NCBI GenBank assembly: GCA_963784355.1
Contig: CAWAQU010000006.1
Span: 1-64,000, forward strand
DNA length: 64,000 bases
Direction of reading: 5' to 3'
Source of the DNA: an uncultured bacterium
Lineage (GTDB): Bacteria > Patescibacteriota > JACMRA01
Numbering within the stretch: the first letter of the stretch is position 1; each line of letters begins with the position of its first letter. The notes beneath the pieces are model-generated. The model made no database searches, had not been told where the DNA came from, and saw only the letters and a list, made by a program, of their open reading frames with translations. Both the position numbers and the translations under genes were made by a program. Shown here piece after piece: positions 30,283 through 54,896 of the stretch.

Positions 30283-30294
30283 TTATACGAAGTC
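30283..30294 (-). other. dif-arm-like 12-mer GACTTCGTATAA (satellite 1)
   Basis: TTATACGAAGTC on + strand, intergenic xth/pgi. Confidence 0.75.
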
Positions 30295-30297
30295 AAT

Positions 30298-31548
30298 ATG
30301 CTTAAAGTAAATTTTCAAAATATACACGGTTTAACAGATCAAAATTCTATCTCAAAAGAGAGTTTATTGCAGGCTAGAAGTAAAATGGACGACCTGTATA
30401 ATCAAATTTTAAACCACAAACAAGGTTTTTTAGATTTACCCAATGCTTCCACAGAGGAGATTAAAACATTTACTCAACAGGTTACCAGCAAGTATAAAAA
30501 TATTGTAATTTTGGGTATTGGTGGGTCAATGCTTGGTCCAAAATGTATTCTAGATGCTCTCTATACATATAAAGATGGTCTTAAAGTCTACTGTTTAGAT
30601 AATATTGATCCGGATCAGATTAGTATAATGGAATCTAGAATCGATCTCAAAGACACACTATTTTTAGTTCAAACTAAATCAGGTACTACTCCGGAAACTA
30701 TTGCCCAGTATCTTTATTTTAAAAAAAAAGTCGAAGCGGAAAATTTAGATTTCAGAAATCACTTTGTATTTGTAACAGATCCTGAAAAAGGTTATCTTAG
30801 GAACATAGCTAATCAAGAACAAGTTCCATGTTTTGAAATTCCACAGAACGTTGGTGGAAGATTTAGCGTACTTACACCTGTAGGCTTGCTCGTTGCTTCT
30901 CTGGTCGGTATTAATATTGACGAGATTTTAAGCGGAGCTAAATACAGTACTGAGAATTTACTCAATGATGCCTATGATTTTGCGTATATCAACTACGAGT
31001 TAAGCGCCAAAGGAAAAAATGTTCATGTGATCATGCCGTACGCAACTAAATTGAAAACTTTTTCTGAATGGTGTGTGCAGTTGATAAGTGAAAGCATAGG
31101 TAAAAAAAGAAGTGTTGAAGGTAACATAGATAATGTAGGAGTTACACCATTGCCTGCTGTTGGAGCTACCGATCAGCACTCTCAATTGCAATTATTTGCC
31201 GAAGGTCCTAATGATAAATTAATTACTTTTATAGAAGTTGAGAAATTTGACACAACTGTTGCAATTCCTGCCAATTCTGAAAGTAGTTTAAGTTATTTAA
31301 ATAACCATAGTTTCAATGATTTAATCAAGGCTGAATTTTATGGAACTAGAGAAAGCCTAACTGAAGCAGACAGACCAAATATAACTATATCAATTGAAAA
31401 GCTGAATGGAAAGAGTCTGGGAGCTTTATTCATGTTTTTTGAAGTATATACTGCTTTTTTTGGTGAAATGTTAGGAGTAAATACCTTTAATCAACCCGGG
31501 GTAGAAAGAAGCAAAGTATTGGCCAGAGAAAATATCTTAAAATTCTAA
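30298..31548 (+). CDS. pgi: Glucose-6-phosphate isomerase
   Basis: GIGGS, KSGTTPET, VGGRFSV, DQHSQLQ, FNQPGVE. Confidence 0.96.
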   Translation: MLKVNFQNIHGLTDQNSISKESLLQARSKMDDLYNQILNHKQGFLDLPNASTEEIKTFTQQVTSKYKNIVILGIGGSMLGPKCILDALYTYKDGLKVYCLDNIDPDQISIMESRIDLKDTLFLVQTKSGTTPETIAQYLYFKKKVEAENLDFRNHFVFVTDPEKGYLRNIANQEQVPCFEIPQNVGGRFSVLTPVGLLVASLVGINIDEILSGAKYSTENLLNDAYDFAYINYELSAKGKNVHVIMPYATKLKTFSEWCVQLISESIGKKRSVEGNIDNVGVTPLPAVGATDQHSQLQLFAEGPNDKLITFIEVEKFDTTVAIPANSESSLSYLNNHSFNDLIKAEFYGTRESLTEADRPNITISIEKLNGKSLGALFMFFEVYTAFFGEMLGVNTFNQPGVERSKVLARENILKF

Positions 31549-31569
31549 TCATAAATAATAAAATATAAA

Positions 31570-32067
31570 ATGCACTTTGGTTTATTGCCTAATATATTAG
31601 GTTTCTCGGCTCTAATTCTCTATATACTAACTCTAATTCCTGGCTTATCCAGAGTTGCGTTGACCGATTTTAGGCGAACCAAGTTTGTGCTATTCTTGAT
31701 GAAGTACCGTAGGGAATTCGGTTTAGCAACTTTTGCTGTGGCCTTAGCACATGGTATATTGATTGGTATTGAGCGAAACTTGAATTTTTTGGAGTTAGGT
31801 ACGATTTTTAAGTATGTTCAGGGTATTACTGCCATGATAATATTGATACTTCTAGCACTTACTTCAAATGACTTTAGTGTGAAAAAAATGAAGCGCAACT
31901 GGAAAAGGCTGCATTCTCTTACTTATTTACTACTTTTTATTTTACCCTGGCACATTGTTGATAAAATGAATGGTCACTGGAGCGTTTTTACACCTTTAGC
32001 TTTAGGATTGTTGCTTATAACTTTGTATTTCTTTGCGGTGAGAATATTTAAGTTGTTGAGAAAATAG
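31570..32067 (+). CDS. Ferric reductase-like transmembrane protein (MsrQ-like heme b carrier)
   Basis: RREFGL, LAH, LALTSND, WKRLHSLTY, WH. Confidence 0.85.
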   Translation: MHFGLLPNILGFSALILYILTLIPGLSRVALTDFRRTKFVLFLMKYRREFGLATFAVALAHGILIGIERNLNFLELGTIFKYVQGITAMIILILLALTSNDFSVKKMKRNWKRLHSLTYLLLFILPWHIVDKMNGHWSVFTPLALGLLLITLYFFAVRIFKLLRK

Positions 32068-32243
32068 TATACTAACTTCATTTAAATAACCGCATTGTCT
32101 ACAAATATAGGGATTTGATTTAATTATCTTATTCCTATTTTTTTTGGCTCGAATTAAGAGATATTACCAAATAAATACTGTTTGACTTTAACAAAAAAGT
32201 GTGCTATAGAATTAATACCAATCAAGTTAATTTGAGTAATAAT

Positions 32244-34788
32244 ATGAGCGCTATAGGCAAAATAATAAATCAATCTTTTTCAAAGTATTTCAACATCTTT
32301 CTGAGTTTAGCGTTGTTTTGCAGTATTTTTTCTGTATTACATGTAAATTCACAAACTATTCCGGCACCTGCAGAGCCAAACTGTCAGACCGTGAGTACAA
32401 ACCCAGCTTTTAATCCATATCCAATTACAACAAGACTCAGTGCGCCTGATATTATTTCAGGGGATTGTAAGGACATGCCGCTTATAAGCTTTTTCCCTAT
32501 TGATTTTAGAAATAACAACCCTAGAGAAAAAACGATAGTACAAGGACAGGACGTTAGCTTCCAACTATATTACATCAATGGTGCAAGGCCAGATGGTAGC
32601 GGAAATCCTAAAATTGAGAATCCTGTAGTAAAAATGGAGCTGATTAAGGAAAGCAACACTAAATATCGTGTTAGAGCTGTCTTATCAGGTAACAACGTTA
32701 CTACTACTACTTCTGCTGATAAAGGTGGTGATTTAATTATCAATACGCCTGCAAATACAACTTTTAAAATAATGGGTAGAGATACTAGACACTATAATGA
32801 TGCTATTGAGAGAAAATATCAAGTAGAGACAGGGCAAAATTCACAACTATACGATTTTATTCAAGATAATTCGAACGGAAATACAATATCAAACCCTATT
32901 TGGTCTCGTTTTGAAGGTGTAAATTTACCAAGCACTTCAGGATTTCAAATTAAACCAAATTTAGAAGCAGGACTTTTAGGGTATGGATATATTCTTACTT
33001 CTATTACTGCTGAAGCACCTGCACCTCAGCCCCCAACTCCTCCAGTTACCCCAGAAAATTTACCTCCTTCTTTACCAGGCGAAGAAATTACAGTAGTTAG
33101 AGGACAGAACGGTTCATTCCAGAGATTAAATGGTACAGATCAAGACAATAATTACCCCCTTACCTACGATTTATCTCAATTACCAGCAAATTGTAGACAG
33201 ACTAGTACTGGTACAGGAAGTAATGGTCCTGGTAGAACTGGTCCCGTGATCACTTGTTCAACTGATGCTAATACACCTACAAGATTTCAATTTATAATTA
33301 CTCCAATTGATTCAAAAGGACTTAGAGGTACTCCAGGTACATTTATAGTAAATGTTATTGAACCAAAAATGACATCTATAAAGCAATGTTTCGTAAAAGG
33401 AACTAATAATCCATGTGCCTCTACTACATTAAAACCAGGAGATGATGTAACTTATAAAGTAACTGTTAATAGCACTGGTACATACAAATTGACCAATCTA
33501 AGAATCACTGACACCTACGACAAAACTAGATTAAATACTATTACCAACATTAGTGATAACGGTACTTTAGGAGATGGTACAATAAACTGGAGTCTTGGTG
33601 ATTTAGCTATTGGAGCTTCTAAGTCTGTCACATTTGATGCTAAAATTTCCAACAATGTACAAAATGGTGATATTGTTTTAAATAGAGCTGTAATCAAAGC
33701 AGACAACTTACCTGATCAAAATGTAAGTGTGCAATTCCCTATCGCAATTGGAAATATTATTGCAGTAAAAGAGTGTTTCGTAAAAGGAACCAACACGCCT
33801 TGTGCTTCTGCCGAATTGAAACCTGGTAATGAAGTAACTTACAAAATAACTGTAAAAAATACAACTCAAACTACCGTAAAAAATCTAAGAATCACTGACA
33901 CCTACGACAAAACTAGATTAAATACTATTACCAACATTAGTGATAACGGTACTTTAGGAGATGGTACAATAAACTGGAGTCTTGGTGATTTAGCCGGAAA
34001 TGCAACTAAAACAGTTAATTTCAACGCTAAAATTACAGATGCTGCAAAATCCGGTGATGTAATTGTAAATATTGCTAAAATTGTAGCTGAGGGTATTCCT
34101 GAAATTACAGTACAAGTGCAGTTCCCTGTTGTTACAGATGAACCTCTTTTATCAACTTCTAATAAAGAATGTTTTAGACAATCTACAAATACAGCATGTA
34201 ACCAAGCAAACCTAAAGCCTGGTGATAAAGTAACTTATAAGATTAATGTTAAAAATACAGGTAAAGGTATTGCAAAAAATCTAAGAATCACTGACACCTA
34301 CGACAAAACTAGACTAAACGGTATCACAAATCTTAATCCACAAGGTCAAGTAAACACCGATCAAGGAACTATTACTTGGAGTATTGGTGATCTTACTGCA
34401 GGTCAAACATCTACATTAGTATTTGATGCTACTATTACAAATGCAATTGCTAATGGTGATATTATTATTAACTCAGCTGTAATCAAAGCAGACAACTTAC
34501 CTGATCAAAATGTAAGTGTGCAATTTGCTGTAACTTTACCTGGAATGCCACCTATTGTTACTCCACCTACACCAAATCTCCCAAATACACCTGCAAACCC
34601 AACCTTACCACAAAATCTAACTCCTAATCCGGTTGCCCCCTGCAGTTAACTTTACCCCTAGAACTGGAGGTGTAAGTACTGCCGCTTTACTCTCAGGGTT
34701 GGTTATGTTTGGCTTTGGTTTTCTATACAAGAAAAATTCTAAATCTAGAGGAAGTTTTATTCCAAAAAGAAATAGTGAAATGAGATAA
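32244..34788 (+). CDS. Large surface protein with three DUF11-like repeats, Pro-rich linker and TPRTGG-TM-basic tail; +1 frameshift near 34636-34640
   Basis: Three xKPGDxVTYKITVxN...ITDTYD...WSLGDL repeats; frame 0 stops at 34649; +1 frame continues PAVNFTPRTGGVSTAALLSGLVMFGFGFLYKKNSK to TAA 34788. Confidence 0.85.
33495..33994. repeat. 113-bp identical block in DUF11 repeats 1 and 2 (33495-33607 and 33882-33994); partial third copy at about 34278
   Basis: aatctaagaatcactgacacctacgacaaaactag...ggagtcttggtgatttagc repeated exactly. Confidence 0.85.
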
Positions 34789-34837
34789 AATTCCAACTCA
34801 AAACGATAGAATTAAAGATAATAAAGCAAAGCGAATG

Positions 34838-34863
34838 GTCCCGGGTAACTCCGGGATTTTTTT
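34838..34863 (+). terminator. Intrinsic terminator downstream of the frameshift-extended end of the surface gene
   Basis: tcccgg-gtaact-ccggga followed by T7. Confidence 0.8.
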
Positions 34864-34880
34864 AAAGCAAGATTAATCAT

Positions 34881-35252
34881 ATGTTAGAATACCCATCTTT
34901 TCCTAACAGACCAAAAAAAGAAAAATCTGAATTTACTCCAAAGCAATTATTCATTGAGCTCTTAGTTAATGAAAAAATTCACTCAGACGACTATAATCTA
35001 GAATTAGATATTCTTTTGCAGAAATCATCAGTAGAGTGCCAAGAGAAGACAATGCTATATATTACACTTTTAAATTTAGATATTGAATTAATAACCTCTA
35101 ACCTAATTAAACGACGAATTGTATTTCTTAATGCAATGTTAGGAATTTTTAAAGGGGTTAAAGCAGCAAAATTGACAAAAGCGGACTCTTATAATTTAAG
35201 ACATCAGCTCATTTTAGAAATAAATAAAATAATAGACCAAAGTAAATTGTAA
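34881..35252 (+). CDS. Hypothetical protein
   Basis: 123-aa ORF. Confidence 0.6.
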   Translation: MLEYPSFPNRPKKEKSEFTPKQLFIELLVNEKIHSDDYNLELDILLQKSSVECQEKTMLYITLLNLDIELITSNLIKRRIVFLNAMLGIFKGVKAAKLTKADSYNLRHQLILEINKIIDQSKL

Positions 35253-35400
35253 ATTTATGTAAGTATTTTTGAGTTGTAAGTAGCCTCAAACTTATTATAA
35301 TTTAATGATCTGACCATGTACGAAATCTAGTTTTCTTATTTACAGGTAAATATATTTTAATTTCATCAAATTAAAGTTAAAACTTAGGTTAAAATTTGCC

Positions 35401-35898
35401 TTATCTTAATATCATTTTAATGCCTTTTTTATGTGAGTTTTCCGAGTTTAAATACTCAAATCCAAACTTCAAGTAAAATTTATCAGCAACAGTTGTTTCA
35501 AGAAAAATTGGTTTATTCTGGATTTTATACTTTAGTATTGCATTCATTAAATTTTGCCCGATACTAATATTTTGCCAACTAGGGTGAACGAACATAGATT
35601 TTAACTCCATACTTTCTTCTTTATTAACTAAAAAAACACTTCCTACTGCTTCATTATTTATTTTGGCAACTAAAGCTAAACTTTGTTTTTTGGCTAAAAT
35701 TTGTTTTAATTCAGTTAGCTTTTTTGACCAGTTTATATTATTTATTTGCTCTTCGGTAGCTTGGTATTCGTCATTAACATAATTTTTGATATAACAAAGC
35801 CTCTGAATTTCTACTATCTGCTCAAGATCAGTAATATCTGCATTAGAAAAAGATAGGTTTTGCAGTAACAAGATTTTGTCTTCGGATAAAGAGTTCAT
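35401..35898 (-). CDS. GNAT family N-acetyltransferase
   Basis: MFVHPSWQNISIGQNLM, FYLKFGF. Confidence 0.85.
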   Translation of the reverse strand: MNSLSEDKILLLQNLSFSNADITDLEQIVEIQRLCYIKNYVNDEYQATEEQINNINWSKKLTELKQILAKKQSLALVAKINNEAVGSVFLVNKEESMELKSMFVHPSWQNISIGQNLMNAILKYKIQNKPIFLETTVADKFYLKFGFEYLNSENSHKKGIKMILR

Positions 35899-35937
35899 AG
35901 TACGTTTTGCTTCTATGTGTTATTAGAACAAACTTTG

Positions 35938-37954
35938 CTACTCCATCAATTTAAACTCTTCTGTTAATCTATCTACTTTGCTTTTTTTGCCGAATACTAA
36001 AACTCCTAAATAATTTAATTCAGTGGATTTTTTTGGTTCTTGTTTATCTCGAGCTTTTTCATCACTATTACTATCTCTCATTTCTTCAGTAAATACAGCT
36101 ATTTTTAAACCCTCTTTTTCAGCAGCTCTTTTTAGCTCCAACAATTGCTCTCTAGAATCTGTTTGTTTGATAATAATTGTATGTTGAATATTCATTGGAA
36201 TTTCCTCGCCATCCTGAGTCTCGAATCTATCTATACCTATAAGCCTATCTCCCTGCCTAGCTGCTAAAGAGGCAGCCAAATGAGCTGATGTAGCAAGTTT
36301 ACTCCAAGTTGGTATTTCAGGGGTGTTTAAAAGGATGCTGTGAGCTACTAAAGTCTTACCGGGTTTTTCAGAATCATTGTCGCGACTTCTTGTGTGAGGA
36401 AATGTAACACACTCTTTTATATGCTTACCAAGTAAAAATGAAACCAATCTTTCACTCATTCCAAAACCTGCAAGTGGCGGAAGTCCATATTCTAGAGCTT
36501 TTACATAATCTTCATTCATAAACTGTGCCTCATCGTCACCTGCATCTCTAGCGGCTTGCTGCGCTTTAAATCTATCCAACTGGTCAATCGGATCATTTAA
36601 CTCACTAAAACATTTGCCTAGTTCAGCGGTACCAGCTACAATTTGCCATCTGTGAACAAGCTTAGGATTTTCAGGATCTCGCTTAGCCAGTGGTTCTAAT
36701 TCCACAGGTTGCTCAGCCAAAAATATTGGATTTTGAATATAAATTCTAGCGACTTTTTTATAGATTTTATCAATTAAATTACTCATTGAAGTGCCTTTTT
36801 CAATTTCAATTTTGTTTTCATTGGCTATCTCAAGCAATTCTTTATAAGTTTTATTTTCCAAATCTACTTTGTCACCGGAAAAATATCTAATTGCTTCAAA
36901 ATATGGAATTACCGGCCAACCATTTACTAGTTTCCACCCATGTCTATCTGCTTCTTCCTGACTACACCAATTACCCCAATTTATACTTTTACCATTGTAA
37001 TCAATTTGTTCATAAGTACCTAAAAATTCTTGTACTATACGTCTATAAATTCTTTGAATTAATGGCATTCCGTCAAAATAGTTGGCATAGGCCCAATAAA
37101 ATTCGATTTGAGTATATTCCTGAAGATGTTGAGGACTGTTACCTTCATTTCTAAAAATTCTGCCAATTTCAAAAACTTTTTCAAACCCACCGGCAATCAA
37201 TTTTTTTAAAGGTAATTCTAACGATATGCGTAAATAGACTTCTTGATTTAATTCATTATAATAGGTTGTAAATGGTTTTGCATCTGCTCCCCCCGGAATT
37301 GTTTCAAAAATAGGGCATTCTACTTCCAAAAAACCTTCCTTAATCATTTCTTCGCGCCAAATCTGCCAGTATCTTGATTTAAGTTTAATTATATCACGGA
37401 CGGATAAGCCGTTTTCATCTTTGGTGTTCATTTTGAAATCTGCAACTTTATCCAAATACCTTGTCTCCACATTTTCATAATCTAATTGCTCAGGTAGGGG
37501 CCTAAGTGATTTAGTCAAAATTGTGTATTCCTCTACAAATAAACTAGGCTCGCCACGTTGAGAAAGGTCCAATTTGCCTGTTGCTTGAATATAGTCACCT
37601 TCATCAAATAAATCTTTATAATTTTCAAAACTTAACTTCTTTTCAGTATTATATTCTTGAGGTAAATCATCTTTTTTAAAAATGAATTGAAATCCCTCAG
37701 GTAGACTCTCATCCTCAATTGTGCCAAAAGCAATTTTACCGGACATTCTTTTAGATTTAACTCTTCCGGCCAATGTAACTTGCTGACCTTTGTTTTCCTC
37801 AAATTTTGATTTTATATCATATAAGGTATAATCTCTTTTTAGAGTAGGGGGTAAAAGGATTTTGACCTAGATCTTCTAGTTTATACATTTTCTCAATACG
37901 AATTTGGCGTTGAGTTTCGACGGATGAATATGAAATACCTGCTTGTTGAGACAT
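35938..37954 (-). CDS. lysS: Lysine--tRNA ligase (class II) with C-terminal DUF2000/PTH2-like domain; +1 frameshift between 37866 and 37820
   Basis: GGADAKPF, YLRISLEL, IGRIFRNEG, SELNDPIDQ, YGLPP; N-terminus MSQQ...RQIRIEK...GQNPF from ATG 37954 lies in a different frame. Confidence 0.93.
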
Positions 37955-37979
37955 ATTGGAATGATATAGTTACCTAATT

Positions 37980-38005
37980 AAAAAACAAACTCCCTGGAAG
38001 GGAGC
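37980..38005 (-). terminator. Attenuator terminator upstream of lysS
   Basis: Minus strand GCTCCCT-TCC-AGGGAGT-TTGTTTTTT, 26 nt before lysS ATG. Confidence 0.8.
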
Positions 38006-38032
38006 ATAAAAATAAATTAACCGAGCCCCCTT

Positions 38033-38083
38033 TTACTGAGAAGTTTTTTTAGAATTTTTCTTGGAGAAGACTACGAGTTTCAT
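38033..38083 (-). CDS. Putative lysS leader peptide MKLVVFSKKNSKKTSQ
   Basis: 16 aa with 5 Lys codons (two tandem pairs); ATG 7 nt after TATAAT; followed by alternative hairpins. Confidence 0.75.
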   Translation of the reverse strand: MKLVVFSKKNSKKTSQ

Positions 38084-38090
38084 GACTACA

Positions 38091-38120
38091 ATTATAGGAC
38101 GATTAAGATATAGCTGTCAA
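38091..38120 (-). promoter_or_regulatory. Consensus sigma70 promoter for leader-lysS
   Basis: TTGACA-N18-TATAAT on minus strand. Confidence 0.85.
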
Positions 38121-38291
38121 GGATAGGGGATACTGCTATTAAAATTTACTATAAATAATTAATACGCATAAGATTTTACAGTCTTACAAACTTCAGCTAT
38201 ACTATCTCAGCACTAAATAAAATACGAATATAAAAATATAAAGTAGCTTCTGTCACACAAAAGTACTATATTATTGAATAATCTATCCAAA

Positions 38292-39519: not shown

Positions 39520-39531
39520 TTATACGAAGTC
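39520..39531 (-). other. dif-arm-like 12-mer (satellite 2) with adjacent TGTATA spacer
   Basis: Minus strand GACTTCGTATAA-TGTATA-TTTGATGAAAT. Confidence 0.75.
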
Positions 39532-42445: not shown

Positions 42446-43492
42446 TTAAAATCCCAATAAATTAATCTCCGTTTCCAAATCAAGGTTATATTTTATTTTA
42501 GCTTCAGATTTTACAGCGTTGATTAGTTTCATCACATCTTCAGCTTTTCCCTCACCCTTATTTTCAATGAAATTGGCGTGTTTATCTGAAATCATGACTT
42601 CACCCTGAGTTTTTCCTTTCCAATTAAATTCTTTATCTACGATATAACCGACGCTTGGGGTAGGGAACCCTAATTCAGCTTGTTTTTCCAATGGTATATT
42701 TTTAAATGTGCATCCTGCGGTTCTACGTGGTTGAATTCTTTTGCGTTTCATCCATTCATTTGCTACAAATTTCGCTTTTTCTATATCTCCTTTAAATAAA
42801 TTGAGTGTGACTGAAACTACTATAATATTTTTATTGTCTCTTAAAACACTTTGATCATATCCGAAATTAAAATCTTTAAATAAAAATTCTTGTAACTTGC
42901 CATCGACTAGGACTTCTGCAGAATAAAAATTGTCAGAAAAATGTTTGGTGCCTCCATGGATATTATTAAATAAGGCTCCTCCAATTGTACCTGGAATTCC
43001 GGCAAAGAATTGCAATCCGCTTATTTCATTTTTTAGTGTCCAAGCAATTGCCCAAGATAAATCTACACCTGAATCAAATTTCACTTTAGTTCTTTGGCCA
43101 GATTCTTCATAATCTAGATCTTTAAATGAGTAAAAACTTCCATCTTCTTCACCGTGTCTTGGTGGAATCCAAGGATTGTAAGCCTCTGCATCGACAGCAC
43201 TGATTTTAGCTGTCTCAGTATGTTCTAAAAGCTCAATGTTTTTGGATTTATTTATAATAACCAATCCTTTTATACCACTATCTGAGATAAGTACATTTGA
43301 GCCACCACCAAGGATAGTGTAGGGGATATCATTCTCAATTGATATATTTACAAGTTCGATTAAATCTTTAGAGCTAGTTAATTCAACTAAATATTCTGCT
43401 GGGCCACCGATTTTCCAAGTGGTGTAGGGGGCTAATGGGCAACTTAGTTTTGGATTGAACTTAGATATTTGATTTAAAAAGATTGTGTTCAT
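42446..43492 (-). CDS. murB: UDP-N-acetylenolpyruvoylglucosamine reductase
   Basis: TTWKIGGPA, GGGSNVL, GIPGTIGG, GCTFKN, KHANF, LETE. Confidence 0.95.
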   Translation of the reverse strand: MNTIFLNQISKFNPKLSCPLAPYTTWKIGGPAEYLVELTSSKDLIELVNISIENDIPYTILGGGSNVLISDSGIKGLVIINKSKNIELLEHTETAKISAVDAEAYNPWIPPRHGEEDGSFYSFKDLDYEESGQRTKVKFDSGVDLSWAIAWTLKNEISGLQFFAGIPGTIGGALFNNIHGGTKHFSDNFYSAEVLVDGKLQEFLFKDFNFGYDQSVLRDNKNIIVVSVTLNLFKGDIEKAKFVANEWMKRKRIQPRRTAGCTFKNIPLEKQAELGFPTPSVGYIVDKEFNWKGKTQGEVMISDKHANFIENKGEGKAEDVMKLINAVKSEAKIKYNLDLETEINLLGF

Positions 43493-43528: not shown

Positions 43529-43603
43529 GTAAGCCTTATATCATATATGATATATTATTGTATTTTTGACATTAAAGGTACTAGCTGCAATTATATGATT
43601 ATA

Positions 43604-44506
43604 ATGAACTATTATATAGTTTTACCGAGTAAAAAGATACCGCAGCCCTATTTAACTTATAAGTATACTGAAGAGTTGGAAGTAGGTAGAATAATTGAAG
43701 TAAACGTTAGAAATGCTAGTGTGTGGGCTGTGGTACTAAAAAAAGTGGATGTAAGTAGCTTAAAATTTGATGAATCCAAAGTTAAAGAGATTGAAAATAA
43801 ATTACCTGTAATATTGGGGGAGCAAAATATAAAATTTTTATATGCCTTTAGTCAAAATACTTTTAACACATTAAATACAGTTTTAAATTCATTTTTACAA
43901 CCATTTAAATTATTAACAAAAAAGCAATGGTCTGAACTTAGTTCGAAACAAGTGGAATTGGCTCAAAATACCCCCCCGGCTTCTGGAAGTGGTTTCAATG
44001 TATTATTTGATCTAAATATATATACCACGTTACGTATAATATACATTATACGAAGTCATTTAAATACAACAAAAAAAAGAATACTACTAGTCTTCCCTGA
44101 AACAAAACACATCAATCGATTTTTAGATGAACTTACTAATCAACAAGATTTTACTGAAATAAAGAAAAAGCTCGACATTTTTATATATACAGGCTCTCCG
44201 GATAAAGAATCAAAGAAAACTGTGTGGAGTATTTTAAATCAAAATTCTAAGACTACTATTATACTTTCAACTCGCAGCGGACTCTTTCTACCATTTAATA
44301 AGTTGGATGAAATAATATTAGTTGATGAAGCAAATTCATTTCATATTCAAGACCAAAATCAGATTTATTTTGATACGCGTGACGTTATTTACCTAATGGC
44401 CCAGAGTTTTCAGTCCAAATTGACCTTCTTAAGTACCCTACCCTCAATTAGGCTCTATAATTTCTATCAGAGCGAAGTTTTTACTCAGTTTAAGGAAAAG
44501 TATTGA
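43604..44506 (+). CDS. priA: Primosomal protein N' (PriA), N-terminal part, degenerate helicase motifs
   Basis: LTYK...VGRIIEV 3'-binding domain; TRSGLFLPFNKLDEIILVDEA, DTRDV, STLPS; ATG 43604 preferred. Confidence 0.8.
   Translation: MNYYIVLPSKKIPQPYLTYKYTEELEVGRIIEVNVRNASVWAVVLKKVDVSSLKFDESKVKEIENKLPVILGEQNIKFLYAFSQNTFNTLNTVLNSFLQPFKLLTKKQWSELSSKQVELAQNTPPASGSGFNVLFDLNIYTTLRIIYIIRSHLNTTKKRILLVFPETKHINRFLDELTNQQDFTEIKKKLDIFIYTGSPDKESKKTVWSILNQNSKTTIILSTRSGLFLPFNKLDEIILVDEANSFHIQDQNQIYFDTRDVIYLMAQSFQSKLTFLSTLPSIRLYNFYQSEVFTQFKEKY
44029..44056. other. Putative chromosome dimer resolution site (dif), 11-6-11 bp, inside priA
   Basis: GTTACGTATAA-TATACA-TTATACGAAGT; spacer equals the E. coli dif core TGTATA on the minus strand; lies at the KOPS polarity switch. 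Confidence 0.8.
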
Positions 44507-45546
44507 TGTCTCAAAAAAAAGCTTTATTTATACATTGTAGACGTGGACTTTATCAGCTAACCAAATGCAAAAGTTGTGGTCATAGTTTTTCTTGTGATAA
44601 TTGTGATGCTAAACTGGTTACTTATAAAACAGGTGGTAGCAGTCTTGAACTTCTGTGTCACCAGTGCCAAACTTATTATAAGTATCCAAATCATTGTCCT
44701 AAGTGTAACTCAAAGGAAATATTTTCTAAATATGGTGGTATTGAAGAATTAGCGCAGTTATTGGAAAAAGAAGATTATAAACTTATTAGACTTGATCAAT
44801 CAAAAAACTTCCCTACAAATCATGCAAATGAAATAGAATCAAATATTGAGGGTAAAAATATACAAATTTCTTTTAGACAAAATAAAAATGACCTAGTAAG
44901 CCCACATTTAACCAGTAATTTAGAAGAATATGATATTTACCTACATACAAGAATATTTGACCCGCTTTTACCCTACTCTATTTTTGATAAAATAGTATTT
45001 GTACAAGCTGAGAATTTACTTGCTAGCCCTGATTATCTAGTAAGCGAAGAAATAATCAAAGCAACTGCTGAAATTTTACTTCAATGCAATACAACTAATG
45101 AAATCATATTTGATACAAATGCCCCTGAATTGGAATTATTTGAAGAGTTAAAAAAACTCCACTACGAGTATCCTGAAAATCACAAGGTCTATGAGTGGTA
45201 TTTAGAATTTTTGGAAAAAGAGAAATCAAACAGGCAAAAATACGGTTTTCCACCATTCAAGAATTTACTTTTGATTACTACTCAGGAAAAAGATATTCAA
45301 AGCTCCAATAAAAAACTAGAAACAATTACTAATTATCTGGATAAGATGAGAGGTGAGTTACCTGAAGTAAGTTGGTCTACCCCCTACCCTGCGAGGTTTT
45401 TAAAACGAAAAAATATGTATTCACATCACATTTTGCTACGTTTCCCGCGCCAATATGAACATTTCAATCTTTTAAGAAAGGAAATCGGAGAAATTGTAGA
45501 GTTATATAGAGTACAAGTAAGGCTTAACCCCAGACATTTGTTTTAG
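44506..45546 (+). CDS. priA: PriA C-terminal part (Zn-binding Cys-rich region plus CTD)
   Basis: RRG..CKSCG..CDNC..CHQC..CPKC, GGIEE, RQKYGFPPF; TGATG overlap with upstream part. Confidence 0.85.
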   Translation: MSQKKALFIHCRRGLYQLTKCKSCGHSFSCDNCDAKLVTYKTGGSSLELLCHQCQTYYKYPNHCPKCNSKEIFSKYGGIEELAQLLEKEDYKLIRLDQSKNFPTNHANEIESNIEGKNIQISFRQNKNDLVSPHLTSNLEEYDIYLHTRIFDPLLPYSIFDKIVFVQAENLLASPDYLVSEEIIKATAEILLQCNTTNEIIFDTNAPELELFEELKKLHYEYPENHKVYEWYLEFLEKEKSNRQKYGFPPFKNLLLITTQEKDIQSSNKKLETITNYLDKMRGELPEVSWSTPYPARFLKRKNMYSHHILLRFPRQYEHFNLLRKEIGEIVELYRVQVRLNPRHLF

Positions 45547-45615: not shown

Positions 45616-45627
45616 GACTTCGTATAA
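45616..45627 (+). other. dif-arm-like 12-mer (satellite 3)
   Basis: GACTTCGTATAA-TGTAT, intergenic. Confidence 0.75.
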
Positions 45628-46075: not shown

Positions 46076-46087
46076 GACTTCGTATAA
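46076..46087 (+). other. dif-arm-like 12-mer (satellite 4)
   Basis: GACTTCGTATAA, intergenic. Confidence 0.75.
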
Positions 46088-46133: not shown

Positions 46134-46589
46134 ATGTCATATTACCTTTATTCCAAGCCATTTACTAAGTTACCTAACTGGACTGAGCTATACACGGCCA
46201 AAATAATATCACTACCCAATAATCACTTAGTTAAAATACACATCGGTCAAAACTTACATTATATCACTTCGGATAATGATAACCTAAACTTTACGGAAAT
46301 ACTTACGGAAAATCTACCAATTAAGTTAGTACCAGATTCTTTAGAGTTTGAGCCAATTATTGATTACACAAATCAAACAGAGAATTATAAAATAAGTGTT
46401 AAAAAGTTCGATGAAAACGAGATTGATGAATTCCTCAAAACTCCTGATTGTTTATTTTATTTATTTACAAATGGTGACTGGAAAATTATCAGATGGGAAA
46501 TAGATAAGCAGCAATTGATATTCAAAACTCTACAAACTCTAGATGAAAACCAATTCACTATTTTTACCGAAACAAGCTATAATTTTTAA
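46134..46589 (+). CDS. Hypothetical protein
   Basis: ATG 46134 follows TTGACA-N17-AATATT; the track's TTG start at 46074 falls in the dif-like arm. Confidence 0.6.
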   Translation: MSYYLYSKPFTKLPNWTELYTAKIISLPNNHLVKIHIGQNLHYITSDNDNLNFTEILTENLPIKLVPDSLEFEPIIDYTNQTENYKISVKKFDENEIDEFLKTPDCLFYLFTNGDWKIIRWEIDKQQLIFKTLQTLDENQFTIFTETSYNF

Positions 46590-48414: not shown

Positions 48415-48454
48415 ATACAATATAATTTGCAAATTTAGAATTATGAGCTTTTCA

Positions 48455-49003
48455 TTAGATCAAAAGTAAGATGAGACCTAGTATAAAACCGCCTACCAAT
48501 CCACCCAAGTGGCCAAAATTATCAATTCTGGGATCGCTGAGGCCAATACCAAAGATAAATAAAATATTAATCATTACACTTCCCAAAGTGGAATAATCCC
48601 TAGTAATAATTGCATAGGCCAATACTGCTCCAACCAAACCCATAATAGATCCACTAGCACCTAAGCTAGGCACATTCGGATTAAACAGAAAAGAGAATAA
48701 TGATCCAACAATACCAGAAACTATATAAATTAACAAAAACTTAAAACTGTCTCTATAGATTAAAAGTACTACCGGCCCTACATTATATAGAGATATCATG
48801 TTAAATAACAAATGTAAGAAGCTACCATGTAAAAAAGTGGAAGTCAAAAACCTGTAGTAATCACCACTTATAATATCAGGATTGCTTTTCCACCCCAAGC
48901 TAATAAAACTAGTAAAACTATCCCTACCAAACCTGCCAAAATTGAAAACAAAGGGTATGGCAAATACTACAATATTTATTATAATTAAAATCAAAAATAC
49001 CAT
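48455..49003 (-). CDS. Rhomboid intramembrane serine protease
   Basis: FLHGSFLHLLFNM, GASG, HLGGLVGG. Confidence 0.93.
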   Translation of the reverse strand: MVFLILIIINIVVFAIPFVFNFGRFGRDSFTSFISLGWKSNPDIISGDYYRFLTSTFLHGSFLHLLFNMISLYNVGPVVLLIYRDSFKFLLIYIVSGIVGSLFSFLFNPNVPSLGASGSIMGLVGAVLAYAIITRDYSTLGSVMINILFIFGIGLSDPRIDNFGHLGGLVGGFILGLILLLI

Positions 49004-49004
49004 A

Positions 49005-49616
49005 CTACTCTTTTTTTAGGTTTTCAGGTATTATAATTGCGAGTAAAATACCAAACAACCAGCCCCCTAATATTGGTAAAGCTTGAAATTGCAGTGGCCT
49101 CTCAACATTTACTACTGCCTCAGTAAAATTTTTCATCGGAGTGACTCTAAACCCGATTTGTCTAGAATCGTTCCATTCATCAACCAACTTCAAATATGCT
49201 GATTTGGCACCATTTAAGAATTTATTAGCATCTTCATTAGATTGAGCCTGATAAGTTAAATTTACAAACCCTGCAGCACCAGCACCAATAACATAGAAAG
49301 GTGTTTTTTCGCTATAATTCGCAATTTTAAGTCCAGCATTTTTTGCAACTGTATCTTGAATATCAATATTTTTAAATCTGGATTCTAGATAACTACTAAA
49401 ATCTTTATTGGCAGTTAGATACGCAAGAGATTTATCATTGCTATTTTGGTTTATGACCAAATAAGATTGATCATTTAAGTTCAGACCAAATGTAAGACTA
49501 GCTTGGTATGAATTTGTTTTTGCCCAAGGAAATAAAAGTAGTGTAAATAGTAGAGTACTTAATAGTATTACCCACCAACGTTTAAAAATACGCCTACGTA
49601 GTTGATCAATCGTCAT
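49005..49616 (-). CDS. Two-TM protein, Wzz/CapA chain-length-determinant-like topology
   Basis: KRWWVILL TM, YQAS, C-terminal P-TM. Confidence 0.55.
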   Translation of the reverse strand: MTIDQLRRRIFKRWWVILLSTLLFTLLLFPWAKTNSYQASLTFGLNLNDQSYLVINQNSNDKSLAYLTANKDFSSYLESRFKNIDIQDTVAKNAGLKIANYSEKTPFYVIGAGAAGFVNLTYQAQSNEDANKFLNGAKSAYLKLVDEWNDSRQIGFRVTPMKNFTEAVVNVERPLQFQALPILGGWLFGILLAIIIPENLKKE

Positions 49617-49638
49617 ATATATTAAAATAATTTATATA

Positions 49639-52600
49639 TTATCTATCAAGACTCCCCTCATCAACAGATAAAGCAAGCTGTTCATCCACTTTTCTATCAT
49701 ATTGATCAGCAGTTTCTGTAACTTGCGCATTTACTTTAATACCTAATGCAGTCAACTCATTAGCTAATACAATAAATGAACTAGGTAAATTAGGACTGAA
49801 TATTGGTTTTTCTCTTACTATTGCTTCAAATGCTGCATCCCTACCTTTTACATCATCAGATTTTATAGTCAACATTTCTTGTAAAGCATAAGCCGCGCCA
49901 TAAGCTTCTAATGCCCACACCTCCATTTCTCCAAATCTTTGCCCTCCTGAATGGCTTCTTCCTCCGAGAGGTTGCTGTGTAACCAGTGAGTAAGGCCCTG
50001 TAGAACGAGTGTGCACCTTGTCATCAACTAAATGGTGAAGCTTGTTTAGATACAAATACCCTACTACGATAGGTCTATCATATTTATTTCCTGTTTGTCC
50101 ATCCCACAAATCAACCTTACCATCTTCTCTAAATCCAGCTTGTATCAACTGTTCTCTTACAATATCCACGGAAATTTCGTTTAAAGGTTGGGTTATGGCC
50201 ATCAAACCTTCTTTTTTACATATTAATCCCAAGTGCGTCTCTAAAAGCTGCCCTAGATTCATACGTCCAATAACACCAAGCGGATTAAGCACAACATCAA
50301 TAGGCACTCCATCTGCTGTATATGGCATATCATTTACAGGAAGTACGACTGAAACTACTCCTTTATTTCCATGTCTTCCGGCCATTTTATCACCAGGTTT
50401 GATTTTTCTGGTAGTAGCTAACCAAATATGCACTCTTTGAATAACGTCATTAGGTAAAGGATCACCTTTGCTTCTGTTAAATACTCTAATTGAAACTACC
50501 TTACCATTTAAACCGTGCTCCAAATATAATGAGCTATCTTTTACATCTCTGGAATATTCACCAAATAATACGCGGATTAATTTATCTTCAGGAGAAAGAT
50601 CAACCTCTCCTTTTGGAGTAATTTTACCTACTAAAATGTCGCCTGATTCTACATAAGCACCTTGATGGATAATACCATCTTTATCCAACTTTCTTAGCTT
50701 ATCACTTGCAACGTTAGGAATATCTCTAGTAATTTCTTCATTTCCTAATCTTGTTTCGTGCACATCACAAGTCAATTGGTAGATATGTGTTGAAGTAAAT
50801 TTATCGTCTGCAACAAGCCTTTCAGATAAAATAATAGCATCTTCAAAATTATAACCTTTGAATGGCATAAATGCAACACGTACATTTTGTCCAATTGCAA
50901 ATTCTCCATTATATATACCAAATCCTTCTACTAAAATGTCGCCTTTAACAACTTTTTCTCCCGGTCTTACCCTTACTTTTTGATTAATTGTAGAATTTCC
51001 GTTTGCAGGTAAAAATTTAAGTGGTTTATAAAAATATTTTTCTTTAGTTTTAGCATCTTGTATAGTTACTTCAGTGCTATCAGCCTTCAAAACTACTCCA
51101 TCACATTCAGAAATAAACATGTAACCACTATAATCCGCAGCAATTTTCTCAAATCCAGTTGCAACGATTGGTTGTTCCGGTCTTACCAAAGGAAGAGCTT
51201 GCCCTTGTTGATTTGTTCCCATGAGTACACGTGTACCGTCAGTTTGAGCTACAAAAGGAACCATACAAGTAGAAAGACTAAAAATTTGATTGGACGCCAC
51301 ATCCATAAACTCTACCTCTTCTACGCTTACTTGAACAGGATTTCCTTCTTTTCTAGCACCGACTGTTTCAATTTGAATATGACCCAATTCATCAACCTGG
51401 TTAATGTTTTCTGCAATTATATTTCTCATTTCTTCTTCACTACTAAACCAAACTATTTCATTTGATACATGCTTTCCTACCTTAACATCATAATTCGGAT
51501 CTACTGAGTTCAATTTTTCCCAAACATCTTGAGTTACTAATTGACCTACTTTAAACTGTCTTTTACCATCAATTACTATATCTTCTTGGATTATTCTAGA
51601 AATCAAATTTTTGTCAGAAGCTTTAAGACTATTTTTAATTCTAAGGTATGGAGTTTCTAAAAAGCCCATTTTATTGATTCTGGAATAAATTGCCGCGTGT
51701 AAATTTAAACCAAAAGCAGGGCCTTCAGGAGTATTTACAGGACAAATTCTACCATAGTAACTAGGTTGTACGTCACGTACTTCAAAACCAGCTCTTTCTC
51801 TTGTCAAACCTCCTGGCCCGGCACATGTCATAAACTGTCTCTGATCCATTTCAGACAATAGATTAGTTTGATCCATGAATCTGGACAATTGTGAAGTATT
51901 GAAGAAATCATCGACCATTGCAGCAAGTGGTCTCATATTTACCAGTTGAGCAGGAGTAAAGTTCTGATCTTCGTTAAGTGTCATTTTATCTTTTGTATTT
52001 CTAACAACTCTACTTAATCCGGCTTTAAATGTATTTCCAAGCCATTCACCCACACCTCTTACTCTTCTGTTGCTTAGTGAGTCAATATTATCAGGCTCCA
52101 CTTTTTCTACTGCCATCCTTACCAATTCTTTCATCGCAGCTGTAATCTCTCCAACTGACAAAGTTTTCTTATAATCACTACCTGCTTCAGGTTTAGATTT
52201 AAAATCAAGTCTTGTATCAAATTTATATCTACCAACTCCTCCAAAATCATACTTTGCACCGTCTTCAAATAATGAAACTAAGTATTTCCTACCTTGTTCA
52301 ATTGAAACAATATCTCCAGGACGTATCTTTTTGTAAATTGAATTTACGGCATCTTCAATACCAAAAGCAGAATCTTTTTCTAAAGTAGCTTGAATATAGC
52401 TAATCTTTTCATCTGTATCTACATCTTTAAACAAACTAATGATTTCAGCTTCTTTTGTAATACCAAATAATTTCAACAGTTGCGTTGCAGGGAATTTTTT
52501 CTTTCGATCTATTCTTGCATAAATAACTCCATCAGCACCAACTTCCAAATCTACCCAGATTCCACGGCTTGGAATAATTCTAGCTGTGTAAACAAATAAA

Positions 52601-53049
52601 CCTTTTTCCAGTTCTCTGGTATATAAAAGACCTGGTGATTTTACAAGCTGACTAACAACTATTTTCTGCACTCCATTAATAATAAAGTTACCTTTCCTTG
52701 TCATTAAAGGAATATTTCCTACAAAAACTCTTTGATTCTTTTTTTCCTTAGTGACTAGATTTTCTACGGTTACGCTTGCATATAAAGGTGCAGAATAGGT
52801 AGTTCCTTCCAACAATGCTTTATACTCATCCATTGCAGGATCAGCCTCTAAATAAAACTCTGGCCCTATATTGATTTGCCATCTACCTGAGCTGGTATCA
52901 CTAATTGGGCTAAATTCTTGAAATATCTTTGATAGATCCTGAGTCCAAAAATTTTGGTAGGAATCTTTTTGCATTGAATTTAAATTGGGAACAGGAAAAA
53001 CATTTTGCTTTACACCGAAGCTACTACGCTGAACTTTTTTGATGGCCAT
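49639..53049 (-). CDS. rpoB: RNA polymerase beta subunit
   Basis: FIINGVQKIVVSQL, GRICPVNTPEG, GDKMAGRHGNKG, GQRFGEMEVWALEAYGAA. Confidence 0.99.
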   Translation of the reverse strand: MAIKKVQRSSFGVKQNVFPVPNLNSMQKDSYQNFWTQDLSKIFQEFSPISDTSSGRWQINIGPEFYLEADPAMDEYKALLEGTTYSAPLYASVTVENLVTKEKKNQRVFVGNIPLMTRKGNFIINGVQKIVVSQLVKSPGLLYTRELEKGLFVYTARIIPSRGIWVDLEVGADGVIYARIDRKKKFPATQLLKLFGITKEAEIISLFKDVDTDEKISYIQATLEKDSAFGIEDAVNSIYKKIRPGDIVSIEQGRKYLVSLFEDGAKYDFGGVGRYKFDTRLDFKSKPEAGSDYKKTLSVGEITAAMKELVRMAVEKVEPDNIDSLSNRRVRGVGEWLGNTFKAGLSRVVRNTKDKMTLNEDQNFTPAQLVNMRPLAAMVDDFFNTSQLSRFMDQTNLLSEMDQRQFMTCAGPGGLTRERAGFEVRDVQPSYYGRICPVNTPEGPAFGLNLHAAIYSRINKMGFLETPYLRIKNSLKASDKNLISRIIQEDIVIDGKRQFKVGQLVTQDVWEKLNSVDPNYDVKVGKHVSNEIVWFSSEEEMRNIIAENINQVDELGHIQIETVGARKEGNPVQVSVEEVEFMDVASNQIFSLSTCMVPFVAQTDGTRVLMGTNQQGQALPLVRPEQPIVATGFEKIAADYSGYMFISECDGVVLKADSTEVTIQDAKTKEKYFYKPLKFLPANGNSTINQKVRVRPGEKVVKGDILVEGFGIYNGEFAIGQNVRVAFMPFKGYNFEDAIILSERLVADDKFTSTHIYQLTCDVHETRLGNEEITRDIPNVASDKLRKLDKDGIIHQGAYVESGDILVGKITPKGEVDLSPEDKLIRVLFGEYSRDVKDSSLYLEHGLNGKVVSIRVFNRSKGDPLPNDVIQRVHIWLATTRKIKPGDKMAGRHGNKGVVSVVLPVNDMPYTADGVPIDVVLNPLGVIGRMNLGQLLETHLGLICKKEGLMAITQPLNEISVDIVREQLIQAGFREDGKVDLWDGQTGNKYDRPIVVGYLYLNKLHHLVDDKVHTRSTGPYSLVTQQPLGGRSHSGGQRFGEMEVWALEAYGAAYALQEMLTIKSDDVKGRDAAFEAIVREKPIFSPNLPSSFIVLANELTALGIKVNAQVTETADQYDRKVDEQLALSVDEGSLDR

Positions 53050-53147
53050 AAATATATGTAATAACGATTGAAATCCTCTTTTTTGTCAAGCTGGCTCTTT
53101 TTTATTCAAAAAATCTTGTTTGGAAAGAAATACATCTTACTCACCAA

Positions 53148-54845
53148 TTACAATTTTGCACTTTTCAATTTTAAATACAAATTTTTTAGGTTTTCATCCA
53201 AAGCAAAACTTATTAATTTACTATCCAAATAATGAATGACCGTACTCCACATACTCTGTCTTTGATTGAGATCAAGTAGCTCTTTTTTTTCATCAATAAT
53301 CATCGCCATAATTTCAGTATTTTCCTCCAGATAATTACCAAAGCTTGAATAGTTATCCAATTGCGGCAATAAAGGTTTCAATAATTCAAAAGAGTGAGCA
53401 ATATTTTCGATAAATTCCGGCTGTATACTCAAAGTTGCCGCCAGTAAATTTTCCCAGGATAAATAAACTGACTGTTCCAAACTCAATCCCTTATCATTAT
53501 CTTCAGTATTATCCGGCTTTATTTCTAATGTATTATCTTTTACTAGGCTATCAAGCACGCTAAAACTTACCCCACTTATTTCACTTAATTTTTTTAAATA
53601 ATGTTCTCTGGAAACAGGATCTAAAACTTCCAGCAAATCAACTACCTTATGTATGGCTTCTTTTTGTGTATTTAAATCTCCACTTTTCAATTCCATATTA
53701 AGTCTTGATAACATCCAGGTTAGATATTCTGTAATATTTAATTCTTTAGGATTTTCAATTGATAAAAATTCATCCAAATCTTTATACTGAGTCGGAATCA
53801 CAACTTTTTGTACATTAAAACCCAACATTGTTGCCGCTTTAAACAGTTTATCAGAAGAAATAATCCCGGCCTCATCATTATCAAAAGCAACCTGAATATT
53901 TTTAGTCACATTTTTCAGAATTTTCAGCTGATTTTCCGTGAAAGAAGTACCTTGACTAGCTAAAGTATTTTTAAAACCTGCCTTAAAGCTCCCTACTACA
54001 TCCATATTTCCTTCTACAATAATTGCAGCTTTAGTTTGTAAAATATGGGTTCGAGCCAGATGCAGTCCAAACCACAAATCACTTTTATTAAACCAGATAC
54101 TTTGAGGCGAATTTAAATATTTTGGTCTTTCAGTTTTATCATATGGCAACACCCTACCTGTAAAGCCTACTACCCTACCCTGACGGTCAAAAACTGGTAT
54201 CATCAACCTATCTGAAAATTTGTCGCTGAGTTTTGCATTTTGATTTTCTTGCTCTTTTTCTTTAAACACACCAATGTCCAGCATTAACTCAGTATTCAAA
54301 TTGTATTTTTGAGCCAAACTAAGTAACATATTACCTCTCGGAGCATAGCCTAGCTTAAATTCATCAATGATTTCCTGTGTCAAACCTCTTTCCAGACAAT
54401 ATTTAGTTATAGGATTTTCTCTATCTTGTAAGACTCTTAAAAGTATTTTGTAATATACCTCACTCGTCCATTCAAGTAATTTTAGTCCTTGTTCAAACTT
54501 ACCAATACTAACTTTTTCTTGTTCAGGATCACTATTCTCATGATAGTCACTGTATTCTTTAGTTTTTTTCAACTCAACTCCAGCTTTTTTGGCAAGTTTA
54601 GTTAGTACCTCTTTTTTTGTAATATTCTCAATTTGCGTTACAAAAGCAAAAATATCACCCCCTGCCCCACAACCAAAGCAATGCCAAATTTTTTTTTCCG
54701 AATTAATCACTAGCGACGGACTTTTTTCACGATGAAATGGACACAACGCTTTATAAACACTGCCTTGAGTTTGCACAGGAATATACTCTTGAATCACATC
54801 TTCAATAGCCAATCTATCTTTTACCTCCTGCCAAACTGAATACAT
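53148..54845 (-). CDS. dnaG: DNA primase
   Basis: CPFHREKSPS, CFGCG, KYLNSP, VEGNMDV, FDNDEAG, KDLDE. Confidence 0.97.
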   Translation of the reverse strand: MYSVWQEVKDRLAIEDVIQEYIPVQTQGSVYKALCPFHREKSPSLVINSEKKIWHCFGCGAGGDIFAFVTQIENITKKEVLTKLAKKAGVELKKTKEYSDYHENSDPEQEKVSIGKFEQGLKLLEWTSEVYYKILLRVLQDRENPITKYCLERGLTQEIIDEFKLGYAPRGNMLLSLAQKYNLNTELMLDIGVFKEKEQENQNAKLSDKFSDRLMIPVFDRQGRVVGFTGRVLPYDKTERPKYLNSPQSIWFNKSDLWFGLHLARTHILQTKAAIIVEGNMDVVGSFKAGFKNTLASQGTSFTENQLKILKNVTKNIQVAFDNDEAGIISSDKLFKAATMLGFNVQKVVIPTQYKDLDEFLSIENPKELNITEYLTWMLSRLNMELKSGDLNTQKEAIHKVVDLLEVLDPVSREHYLKKLSEISGVSFSVLDSLVKDNTLEIKPDNTEDNDKGLSLEQSVYLSWENLLAATLSIQPEFIENIAHSFELLKPLLPQLDNYSSFGNYLEENTEIMAMIIDEKKELLDLNQRQSMWSTVIHYLDSKLISFALDENLKNLYLKLKSAKL

Positions 54846-54850
54846 GATCT

Positions 54851-54880
54851 AATATAAATATACTTTTCATTTTTTGGCAA
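54851..54880 (-). promoter_or_regulatory. Sigma70 promoter of dnaG (leaderless)
   Basis: TTGCCA-N18-TATATT, 5 nt before ATG. Confidence 0.55.
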
Positions 54881-54884
54881 TATT

Positions 54885-54896
54885 GACTTCGTATAA
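54885..54896 (+). other. dif-arm-like 12-mer (satellite 5)
   Basis: GACTTCGTATAA, intergenic. Confidence 0.75.

Follow-up and report, generated by a model that had tools for sequence, protein, structure and literature searches.

Polar half-sites of a dif-like arm flank a dif-like site inside a priA-like gene in a family of uncultured Patescibacteria

Half-sites and genes at the locus

A 64,000-nucleotide stretch of DNA from an uncultured bacterium of the Patescibacteriota (lineage JACMRA01), corresponding to positions 1 to 64,000 of contig CAWAQU010000006.1 (contig C6 of assembly GCA_963784355.1) and referred to below as the window, contains a 12-nucleotide word that is repeated in mirror orientation on the two sides of a 28-bp site resembling dif. 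The source assembly (G000) consists of 13 contigs with a total length of 1.14 Mb and a GC content of 33%. Six exact copies of the word, GACTTCGTATAA, are present in the window, three on the minus strand (30283, 39520, and 44046) and three on the plus strand (45616, 46076, and 54885), exactly as listed in an earlier note made from the sequence alone. Only 0.02 copies are expected from shuffled sequences and none of 100 shuffles gave six, in line with the rough expectation of that note (fewer than 0.1 copies). The copy at 44046 is one arm of the 28-bp site; the other five are half-sites, referred to here as satellites.

The 28-bp site (44029..44056) has two 11-bp imperfectly inverted arms separated by a 6-bp spacer (GTTACGTATAA TATACA TTATACGAAGT), with the 12-mer arm on the minus strand. 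The earlier view of it as a dif-like, central site of the terminus holds with one correction: it is contained in the coding sequence of a priA-like gene. This gene is split into two overlapping open reading frames (ORFs) of 319 and 347 amino acids (aa), which match PriA models only below cut-off. The N-terminal ORF (43547..44506, plus strand), which hosts the 28-bp site, contains the Pfam domain PriA_3primeBD, with NCBIfam PriA models below cut-off, and the C-terminal ORF (44503..45546, plus strand) contains the Pfam domain PriA_C and matches TIGR00595 with 105 bits, also below cut-off.

Each satellite has its own gene context. The first (30283..30294, minus strand) is located between the end of the upstream ORF (30273) and the start of pgi (30298), and the second (39520..39531, minus strand) is intergenic and followed by TGTATA. 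Beyond the 28-bp site, the satellite at 45616..45627 (plus strand) is intergenic with convergent genes on either side and is followed by TGTATT, so that the TGTAT spacer start is indeed kept in two satellites (39520 and 45616). The next one (46076..46087, plus strand) lies upstream of a small plus-strand ORF (ATG at 46134) and holds the replication polarity even though this ORF opposes both neighboring genes. The last one (54885..54896, plus strand) lies between dnaG, which starts at 54845, and a FemAB-like gene ending at 54908. At the pgi-upstream satellite (30283), a 17-nt island, TATTATACGAAGTCAAT, occupies the same position in a congener (G001), while the flanks are about 66% identical. 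An 816-aa ORF with repeated DUF11-type domains, probably a surface protein, is located between two of the satellites (32199-34649).

Sequence properties of the half-site word

The whole assembly contains 20 exact 12-mers and 26 exact copies of the 11-mer ACTTCGTATAA, spread over nine of the 13 contigs. Twelve one-mismatch variants of the 12-mer were also detected, which is approximately the chance level by a rough estimate, and six of them differ solely at position 1, suggesting that the 11-mer is the core of the word. When the window copies were aligned, their flanks had only a preceding T-G and a following T in common; the repeat unit thus appears to be a word of 12-14 nt and nothing longer. 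A 9-mer, TTATACGAA, was used as a shorter form in the comparisons below.

No second arm was found at these sites, since TTATA occurs at spacers of 4-8 bp from the 26 half-sites at background level; with a spacer of 6 bp it is present at two of the 26, dif itself included, compared with a background of 4%. The earlier claims that the satellites lack a good second arm and would be non-recombining are consistent with this result, as half-sites with no second arm should be unable to recombine.

Although the five satellites of the window are intergenic as first noted (that at 46076 only if the ATG at 46134 is the start), this does not extend to the genome, where 16 of the 26 exact 11-mers lie inside ORFs of good length and one more (46077) does so if a doubtful TTG start is accepted. 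All three reading frames are represented among the intragenic sites, which encode LYEV, IIRS, or YTK in unrelated proteins, or TSYN when the word is sense to the gene, which implies that selection acts on DNA; a conserved peptide was rejected for the same reason. Similarly, a promoter was considered for a word that ends in TATAAT and is often preceded by TTGAC, and was rejected because the spacing is wrong and the word is mostly antisense to its host or adjacent gene. Scars of integration by integrative mobile elements exploiting Xer (IMEX) were also rejected, as the sites are in frame in housekeeping genes, are mirror-oriented on both sides of dif, and are conserved throughout the family.

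A dif-like site inside a priA-like gene

The central 28-bp site is a credible dif of the chromosome terminus, judging from its sequence and setting. In addition to its two imperfectly inverted arms and 6-bp spacer, it is located where the polarity of the octamer GGGNAGGG, the canonical form of the FtsK-orienting polar sequences (KOPS), flips: the last plus-strand copy ahead of it is at 42658..42665 and the first minus-strand copy past it at 44436..44443. The candidate cognate machinery, a Xer-type recombinase and an FtsK gamma domain, is encoded as well.

Public genomes were scanned with a priA-like protein alignment, which gave 19 loci, labeled as Saccharibacteria, Patescibacteria, SR1, Gracilibacteria, or Paceibacterota, together with two Limisphaerales, one "uncultured bacterium", and several entries named just "bacterium". 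Three of these loci end before the dif position. All 16 loci that cover it have the pattern NNNNCGTATAA-N6-TTATACGNNNN (CGTATAA-N6-TTATACG) at the corresponding position of the gene, with one variant (TTATAAG); counting G000, this makes 17 complete loci, all with dif inside the priA-like gene. In the window, the site encodes L-R-I-I-Y-I-I-R-S. The arms encode Arg-Ile and Ile-Arg, and the arginine codons are always CGT and CGN, which would be expected to be uncommon at 33% GC. The dif spacer and the residues encoded by it vary among loci. In the protein alignment, R163, I164, Y166, I168, and R169 are invariant and form an island in a variable, gapped region. At the DNA level, the inner 7 nt of the half-site word are identical to the invariant dif core.

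Some side observations concern the host gene itself. The dif-encoded R-I-x-x-x-I-R aligns with early helicase-core positions of PriA models, and a G-x-G-K-T Walker A motif was not noticed in the alignment, in which no formal search for it was made. In four other genera, the N-terminal part of the priA-like protein has an ORF of its own (350-441 aa), and in G009 it is longer (570 aa).

Replication polarity and terminus restriction

Two guides to replication direction were used for G000, namely the polarity of GGGNAGGG and a relative of the same family (G018) that is assembled as a single contig of 1,272,640 bp and is the sole closed genome in the comparison; completeness across genomes ranges from 64% to 93% by marker count (81% for G000). 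Ordering the contigs of G000 by GC skew was dropped, because local skew mostly follows gene orientation. In G018, cumulative GC skew has a minimum at about 300 kb and a maximum at about 900 kb, and gene orientation and GGGNAGGG polarity switch at both places where the skew turns. Besides skew, gene orientation, and KOPS-like polarity, the origin call draws on DnaA-box-like sequences, which are in loose excess at 288-306 kb. A dif-like site, GTTTCGTATAA GGTACA TTATACGTAGT, is present at 914113, at the flip and at the maxima of GC skew and gene orientation.

All exact 11-mers of G018 are confined to the region around this site, six on the minus strand (658810, 711129, 775189, 854559, 883299, and 895659) and four on the plus strand (947434, 1035396, 1100688, and 1165461), with none elsewhere in the genome. 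Thus, the leading strand carries 10 of 10, all within about 260-270 kb of dif, and the 9-mer TTATACGAA gives a similar picture, with 19 leading and two lagging copies in the terminus half and zero and one, respectively, in the origin half. The sites are denser near dif, with distances to it of 7-33 kb among sites of G018 and six sites within 25 kb in the window of G000. These data bear out the enrichment near the terminus that had been anticipated, and the uniform, unpolarized distribution that would have spoken against the array was not seen in G018.

In the window, GGGNAGGG is on the plus strand at 4-42.7 kb and on the minus strand from 44.4 kb, the flip falling exactly at the 28-bp site, and its polarity is consistent along the contigs of G000. 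When the strand of each half-site was compared with that of the three nearest GGGNAGGG copies, TTATACGAAGT was co-stranded with GGGNAGGG at 22 of the 26 sites. Two of the four misses (39520 and 44046) have their nearest GGGNAGGG copies across dif, and the other two are located in a mobile-looking patch on contig C3.

Several observations indicate that the polarity follows replication and not transcription. Only 58% of coding bases in G018 are on the leading strand, no site is sense in a lagging-strand gene, and two sites in lagging-strand genes retain the replication polarity. Avoidance of stop codons explains part of the preference within leading-strand genes, as the sense reading contains TAA and TGA in two frames; however, transcription or stop-codon avoidance alone was rejected as the cause because the 58% share is too small for a skew of 19 to 1.

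When G018 was searched without bias for skewed k-mers, the top-ranking octamer was GGGTAGGG, which has 41 leading and zero lagging copies and is present in both halves of the chromosome. It matches the canonical KOPS form GGGNAGGG and behaves as a KOPS-like word. The polarity of GGGTAGGG/GGGNAGGG can be used for orienting contigs of these metagenome-assembled genomes (MAGs). Spurious skewed k-mers in the same search came from a single locus (G018:C1:1170756-1171131), where a 24-nt unit containing GCAACACTCGGAGCAA is repeated in tandem at least 16 times.

The half-site word shares with KOPS its position on the leading strand and its direction toward dif; however, it is 12-14 nt long rather than 8, the family has a GGGNAGGG-type word of its own, and whereas KOPS are leading-skewed words of about 8 bp along both whole replichores, no 9- to 11-mer was found on the leading strand of the origin half. 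KOPS or Chi was therefore rejected as a reading of the half-site word, given its restriction to the terminus domain and the presence of GGGTAGGG in the KOPS role. A broader alternative is that some other protein reads the word (as the regulon of a transcription factor, an FtsK gamma domain with an unusual KOPS, or a Chi-like signal) and that the likeness to a dif arm is incidental. This would be compatible with the outer nucleotides, which differ between satellites and dif arms in most genomes. Nevertheless, it appears very unlikely: most sites are in genes rather than promoters, the genome has another word of canonical KOPS-like type throughout, Chi and KOPS are not confined to the terminus domain as this word is, the invariant dif core is matched by the inner 7 nt, and the sites recur at xer promoters.

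Conservation across the family

Of 24 relatives in the same family, 21 contain the exact 12-mer (1-12 copies each), as do none of 16 genomes from other families of the order or phylum; the reversed word, used as a control, gave 0-2 copies per genome. Two of the three 12-mer-negative relatives contain the exact 11-mer (five copies in G009 and six in G014), and the third (G011) does not. The motif is conserved across the family, and within G000 it is not confined to the window.

In all six genomes examined for orientation (G000, G018, G006, G021, G007, and G009), the half-sites switch from the minus to the plus strand across a dif-like site that lies within the priA-like gene, which agrees with the replication-oriented flip proposed earlier. 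The most compact case is the priA-like gene of G009 (C21:61611-63320), in which dif and three mirror-oriented half-sites (61933 on the minus strand; 62709 and 63039 on the plus strand) are located within 1.1 kb. The half-sites of G009 have AA instead of TG ahead of the word. No description of a polar half-site array in the candidate phyla radiation (CPR)/Patescibacteria was found among the best 15 of 151 full-text literature matches, as the earlier note had supposed.

A Xer-type recombinase as candidate reader

An inventory of tyrosine recombinases in G000 gave three loci: a Xer-type gene on contig C4, a 200-aa integrase on C3, and a pseudogene on C2. The C4 protein (359 aa) contains Phage_int_SAM_1 and Phage_integrase domains and scores 198, 194, and 186 bits against the XerC, XerA, and XerD models, all below the equivalog cut-offs. 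Exactly one tyrosine recombinase (334-385 aa) was identified in each of the five relatives searched. With a single Xer-type enzyme per genome checked, below the cut-offs of all three models, the label of XerC-type arm given to the word at first cannot be kept. This family resembles XerS/difSL, XerH/difH, and archaeal XerA/dif in having one Xer, an imperfectly palindromic dif, and FtsK; unlike in those systems, dif is located in a protein-coding gene, is not beside xer in G000, and is accompanied by a satellite array.

The promoter region of xer provides the main link between enzyme and word. Among 13 xer upstream regions, six (G018, G021, G022, G007, G017, and G015) have an exact 11-mer within about 100 nt of the xer start, inverted in G015, and two more (G004 and G019) have a near copy retaining TTATACGAA, so that the motif is in or near the xer promoter in eight of the 13 genomes. 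A -35-like hexamer, TTGAC(A/C), precedes the motif by 1-6 nt in six of these eight regions, whereas in G017 TTGACA is much further upstream. At a density of 10-20 sites per Mb, recurrence at xer promoters would be very unlikely by chance and looks like the usual signature of autoregulation. These promoter copies are the chief, if indirect, sign that Xer reads the word, and they support the link to a Xer recombinase that had been proposed.

The C3 integrase is unlikely to be a general reader, as close homologues were found only in G001 and G002, in multiple copies. It belongs to a mobile-looking patch of G000 (about 14.2-22 kb of C3) that encodes a PemK/MazF-like toxin and this 200-aa, catalytic-only tyrosine recombinase; two direct 28-nt repeats and one inverted half-site copy are located downstream of the recombinase, and the polarity of GGGNAGGG is locally inverted in the patch. 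Homologues of this integrase are multi-copy in G002, and one homologue in G001 adjoins an exact arm followed by a 6-bp spacer and GTATAA, the inner six bases of a second arm.

Loop extruders, terminator proteins and FtsK

Complexes of the structural maintenance of chromosomes (SMC) type were searched for as possible clients. SMC_hinge and ScpA were found in none of four genomes, including the single-contig G018; no protein exceeded the SMC_prok_B cut-off in 26 genomes (best score 57 bits, cut-off 567), and none the MukB cut-off in the same 26, Mks/Wadjet-type complexes not having been searched for. The family may thus be an SMC-less lineage, as far as Smc and MukB in 26 genomes and ScpA in four are concerned, with no search for Mks/Wadjet. 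FtsK gamma domains were identified in 25 of 26 genomes.

The earlier note had compared the satellites with the extra XerD-binding sites (XDS) of Bacillus subtilis, at which XerD unloads SMC. Xer-type half-sites in the terminus region are indeed the defining picture of XDS as described in papers citing the original work (PMC11840125, PMC10945525, PMC9226527; also PMC11894783), and in both cases extra dif-related sites in the terminus are thought to bind Xer without recombining and independently of a partner arm. However, XDS as described in PMC9226527 have a full Xer arm, a spacer of 5-6 bp, and a second arm's five innermost bp, whereas the sites described here are pure half-sites at which TTATA is at background level. 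Moreover, one Xer is present instead of XerC and XerD, and Smc, ScpA, and MukB were not found (Mks/Wadjet were not among the models searched); set beside XDS, the array also comprises about 20 sites, strict in their replication polarity and in many cases located in coding sequences, that are spread over some 40% of the chromosome. SMC unloading is therefore disfavored, and we consider an XDS-like role highly improbable.

Another possibility is a replication fork trap, an analogue of Tus-Ter or RTP-Ter, in which Xer or another protein at polar sites would admit forks and arrest those that have passed dif. As in Tus-Ter of Escherichia coli and RTP-Ter of B. subtilis, two opposed polar groups flank the terminus, the core is long and exactly conserved, and 10-20 sites occupy a large share (about 40%) of the chromosome, their spread of ±270 kb resembling a Ter-type system. 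Neither Tus (PF05472) nor RTP (PF02334) was detected in four genomes, which fits a vacancy that the array could fill but also departs from the encoded terminator protein typical of such systems. Unlike in Tus-Ter and RTP-Ter, the word is a dif arm, and fork arrest is hypothetical here; we know of no tyrosine recombinase that arrests replisomes. In addition, polar blocking by a complex of Xer with a half-site has a single experimental precedent, which concerns FtsK (PMC2800217). A fork trap seems unlikely, although it fits the geometry as well as a barrier to FtsK does.

It is also conceivable that the half-sites act as a MatP/matS-like organizer or a Xer reservoir, holding Xer and tethering the terminus at the septum by way of Xer-FtsK contacts, or raising the local Xer concentration, with the polarity serving to keep the sites permissive for FtsK. 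The terminus-limited distribution with higher density near dif would agree with this, as would the nearly universal FtsK gamma domain and the lack of a detected SMC or MukB client. On the other hand, a pure landmark does not explain near-perfect polarity (10 of 10, and 19 to 1), and bridging and septal tethering are suppositions. We consider such a role quite improbable.

Proposed function of the array

With moderate confidence, based on the sequence features and on analogy, we propose that monomeric Xer sites form a polar array of roadblocks in the terminus domain, serving as its one-way barrier or landmark. What the analysis shows is the motif with its polarity, confinement to the terminus domain, family-wide conservation, selection at the DNA level, and link to xer promoters; Xer binding, its monomeric state, and the roadblock function are inferred from these features. 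The 14-bp unit T-G-ACTTCGTATAA-T would most likely be a high-affinity single-arm site for the Xer-type recombinase of the family, and about 20-26 such half-sites per genome are confined to the terminus-proximal 40% or so of the chromosome. With no second arm, each would bind a monomer and could not recombine. Every satellite points its inner, spacer-side end (TTATA) toward the origin and its outer end (GAAGTC) toward dif. Consequently, anything traveling toward dif would meet the permissive face and pass, which would hold for KOPS-guided FtsK and, geometrically, for replication forks too, while movement away from dif would meet the blocking face and be stopped, which would keep activity concentrated at the dif zone. 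A half-site in the xer promoter would add autoregulation.

The directionality in this proposal follows work on E. coli, in which Graham et al. (2010) found in vitro that XerD bound to a dif half-site stops FtsK arriving from the outer face and that the block from the inner face is about 5-fold weaker (PMC2800217). One recombinase, one arm, and an outcome that depends on the face are common to both cases, and the natural orientation of the satellites would be the permissive one for movement toward dif. Unlike that engineered in vitro substrate, the array described here is a natural genomic one in a distant phylum with a single-recombinase system. Because a precedent exists for FtsK, FtsK is more likely to be the client than forks, judged by this analogy. 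A more ambitious version is tentative and rather unlikely: in this apparently SMC-less and Tus-less family, a tyrosine recombinase would have been recruited as a polar lock for a terminus trap, with monomeric Xer on about 20 oriented half-sites serving FtsK and replication forks alike as a one-way valve and with dif hard-wired in the coding sequence of priA, a replication-restart gene.

Several points weigh against the proposed barrier. The polarity could be passive, merely sparing FtsK, and not the function itself. The protein that reads the motif is known by inference from sequence, and the motif is absent upstream of xer in five of the 13 genomes (G000, G005, G012, G016, and G013). In most genomes, dif arms and satellites have different outer 4 nt, so that dif and satellites are not identical targets; in G007, for example, neither dif arm has GAAGT. 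Covering about ±270 kb, or 42% of the genome, the sites are spread more widely than a dif-proximal FtsK zone would seem to need. In G018, dnaA is located at 856.6 kb (856615-857100), only 57 kb from dif and far from the skew minimum; no dnaA above the Pfam cut-off was found in G000, an assembly that is 81% complete. Finally, the precedent for a polar FtsK roadblock is in vitro and comes from E. coli XerD in a two-recombinase system (PMC2800217).

Concluding remarks

A family of ultra-small uncultured Patescibacteria shows a terminus system defined by sequence, which combines polar recombinase half-sites with a dif located in a gene. To our knowledge, three systems that define the terminus have been described, and a few model bacteria are the source of all of them (Tus-Ter, MatP-matS, and XerD-XDS). 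The half-site word provides a simple marker for locating the terminus and ordering contigs in these MAGs. The array may be a natural counterpart to the directional Xer half-site roadblock described in vitro (PMC2800217), and the role of extra Xer sites in the apparent absence of SMC becomes directly testable with recombinant proteins. If true, the reading of Xer as a polar lock would represent a new class of terminus-organizing system, built wholly from the machinery of dimer resolution.

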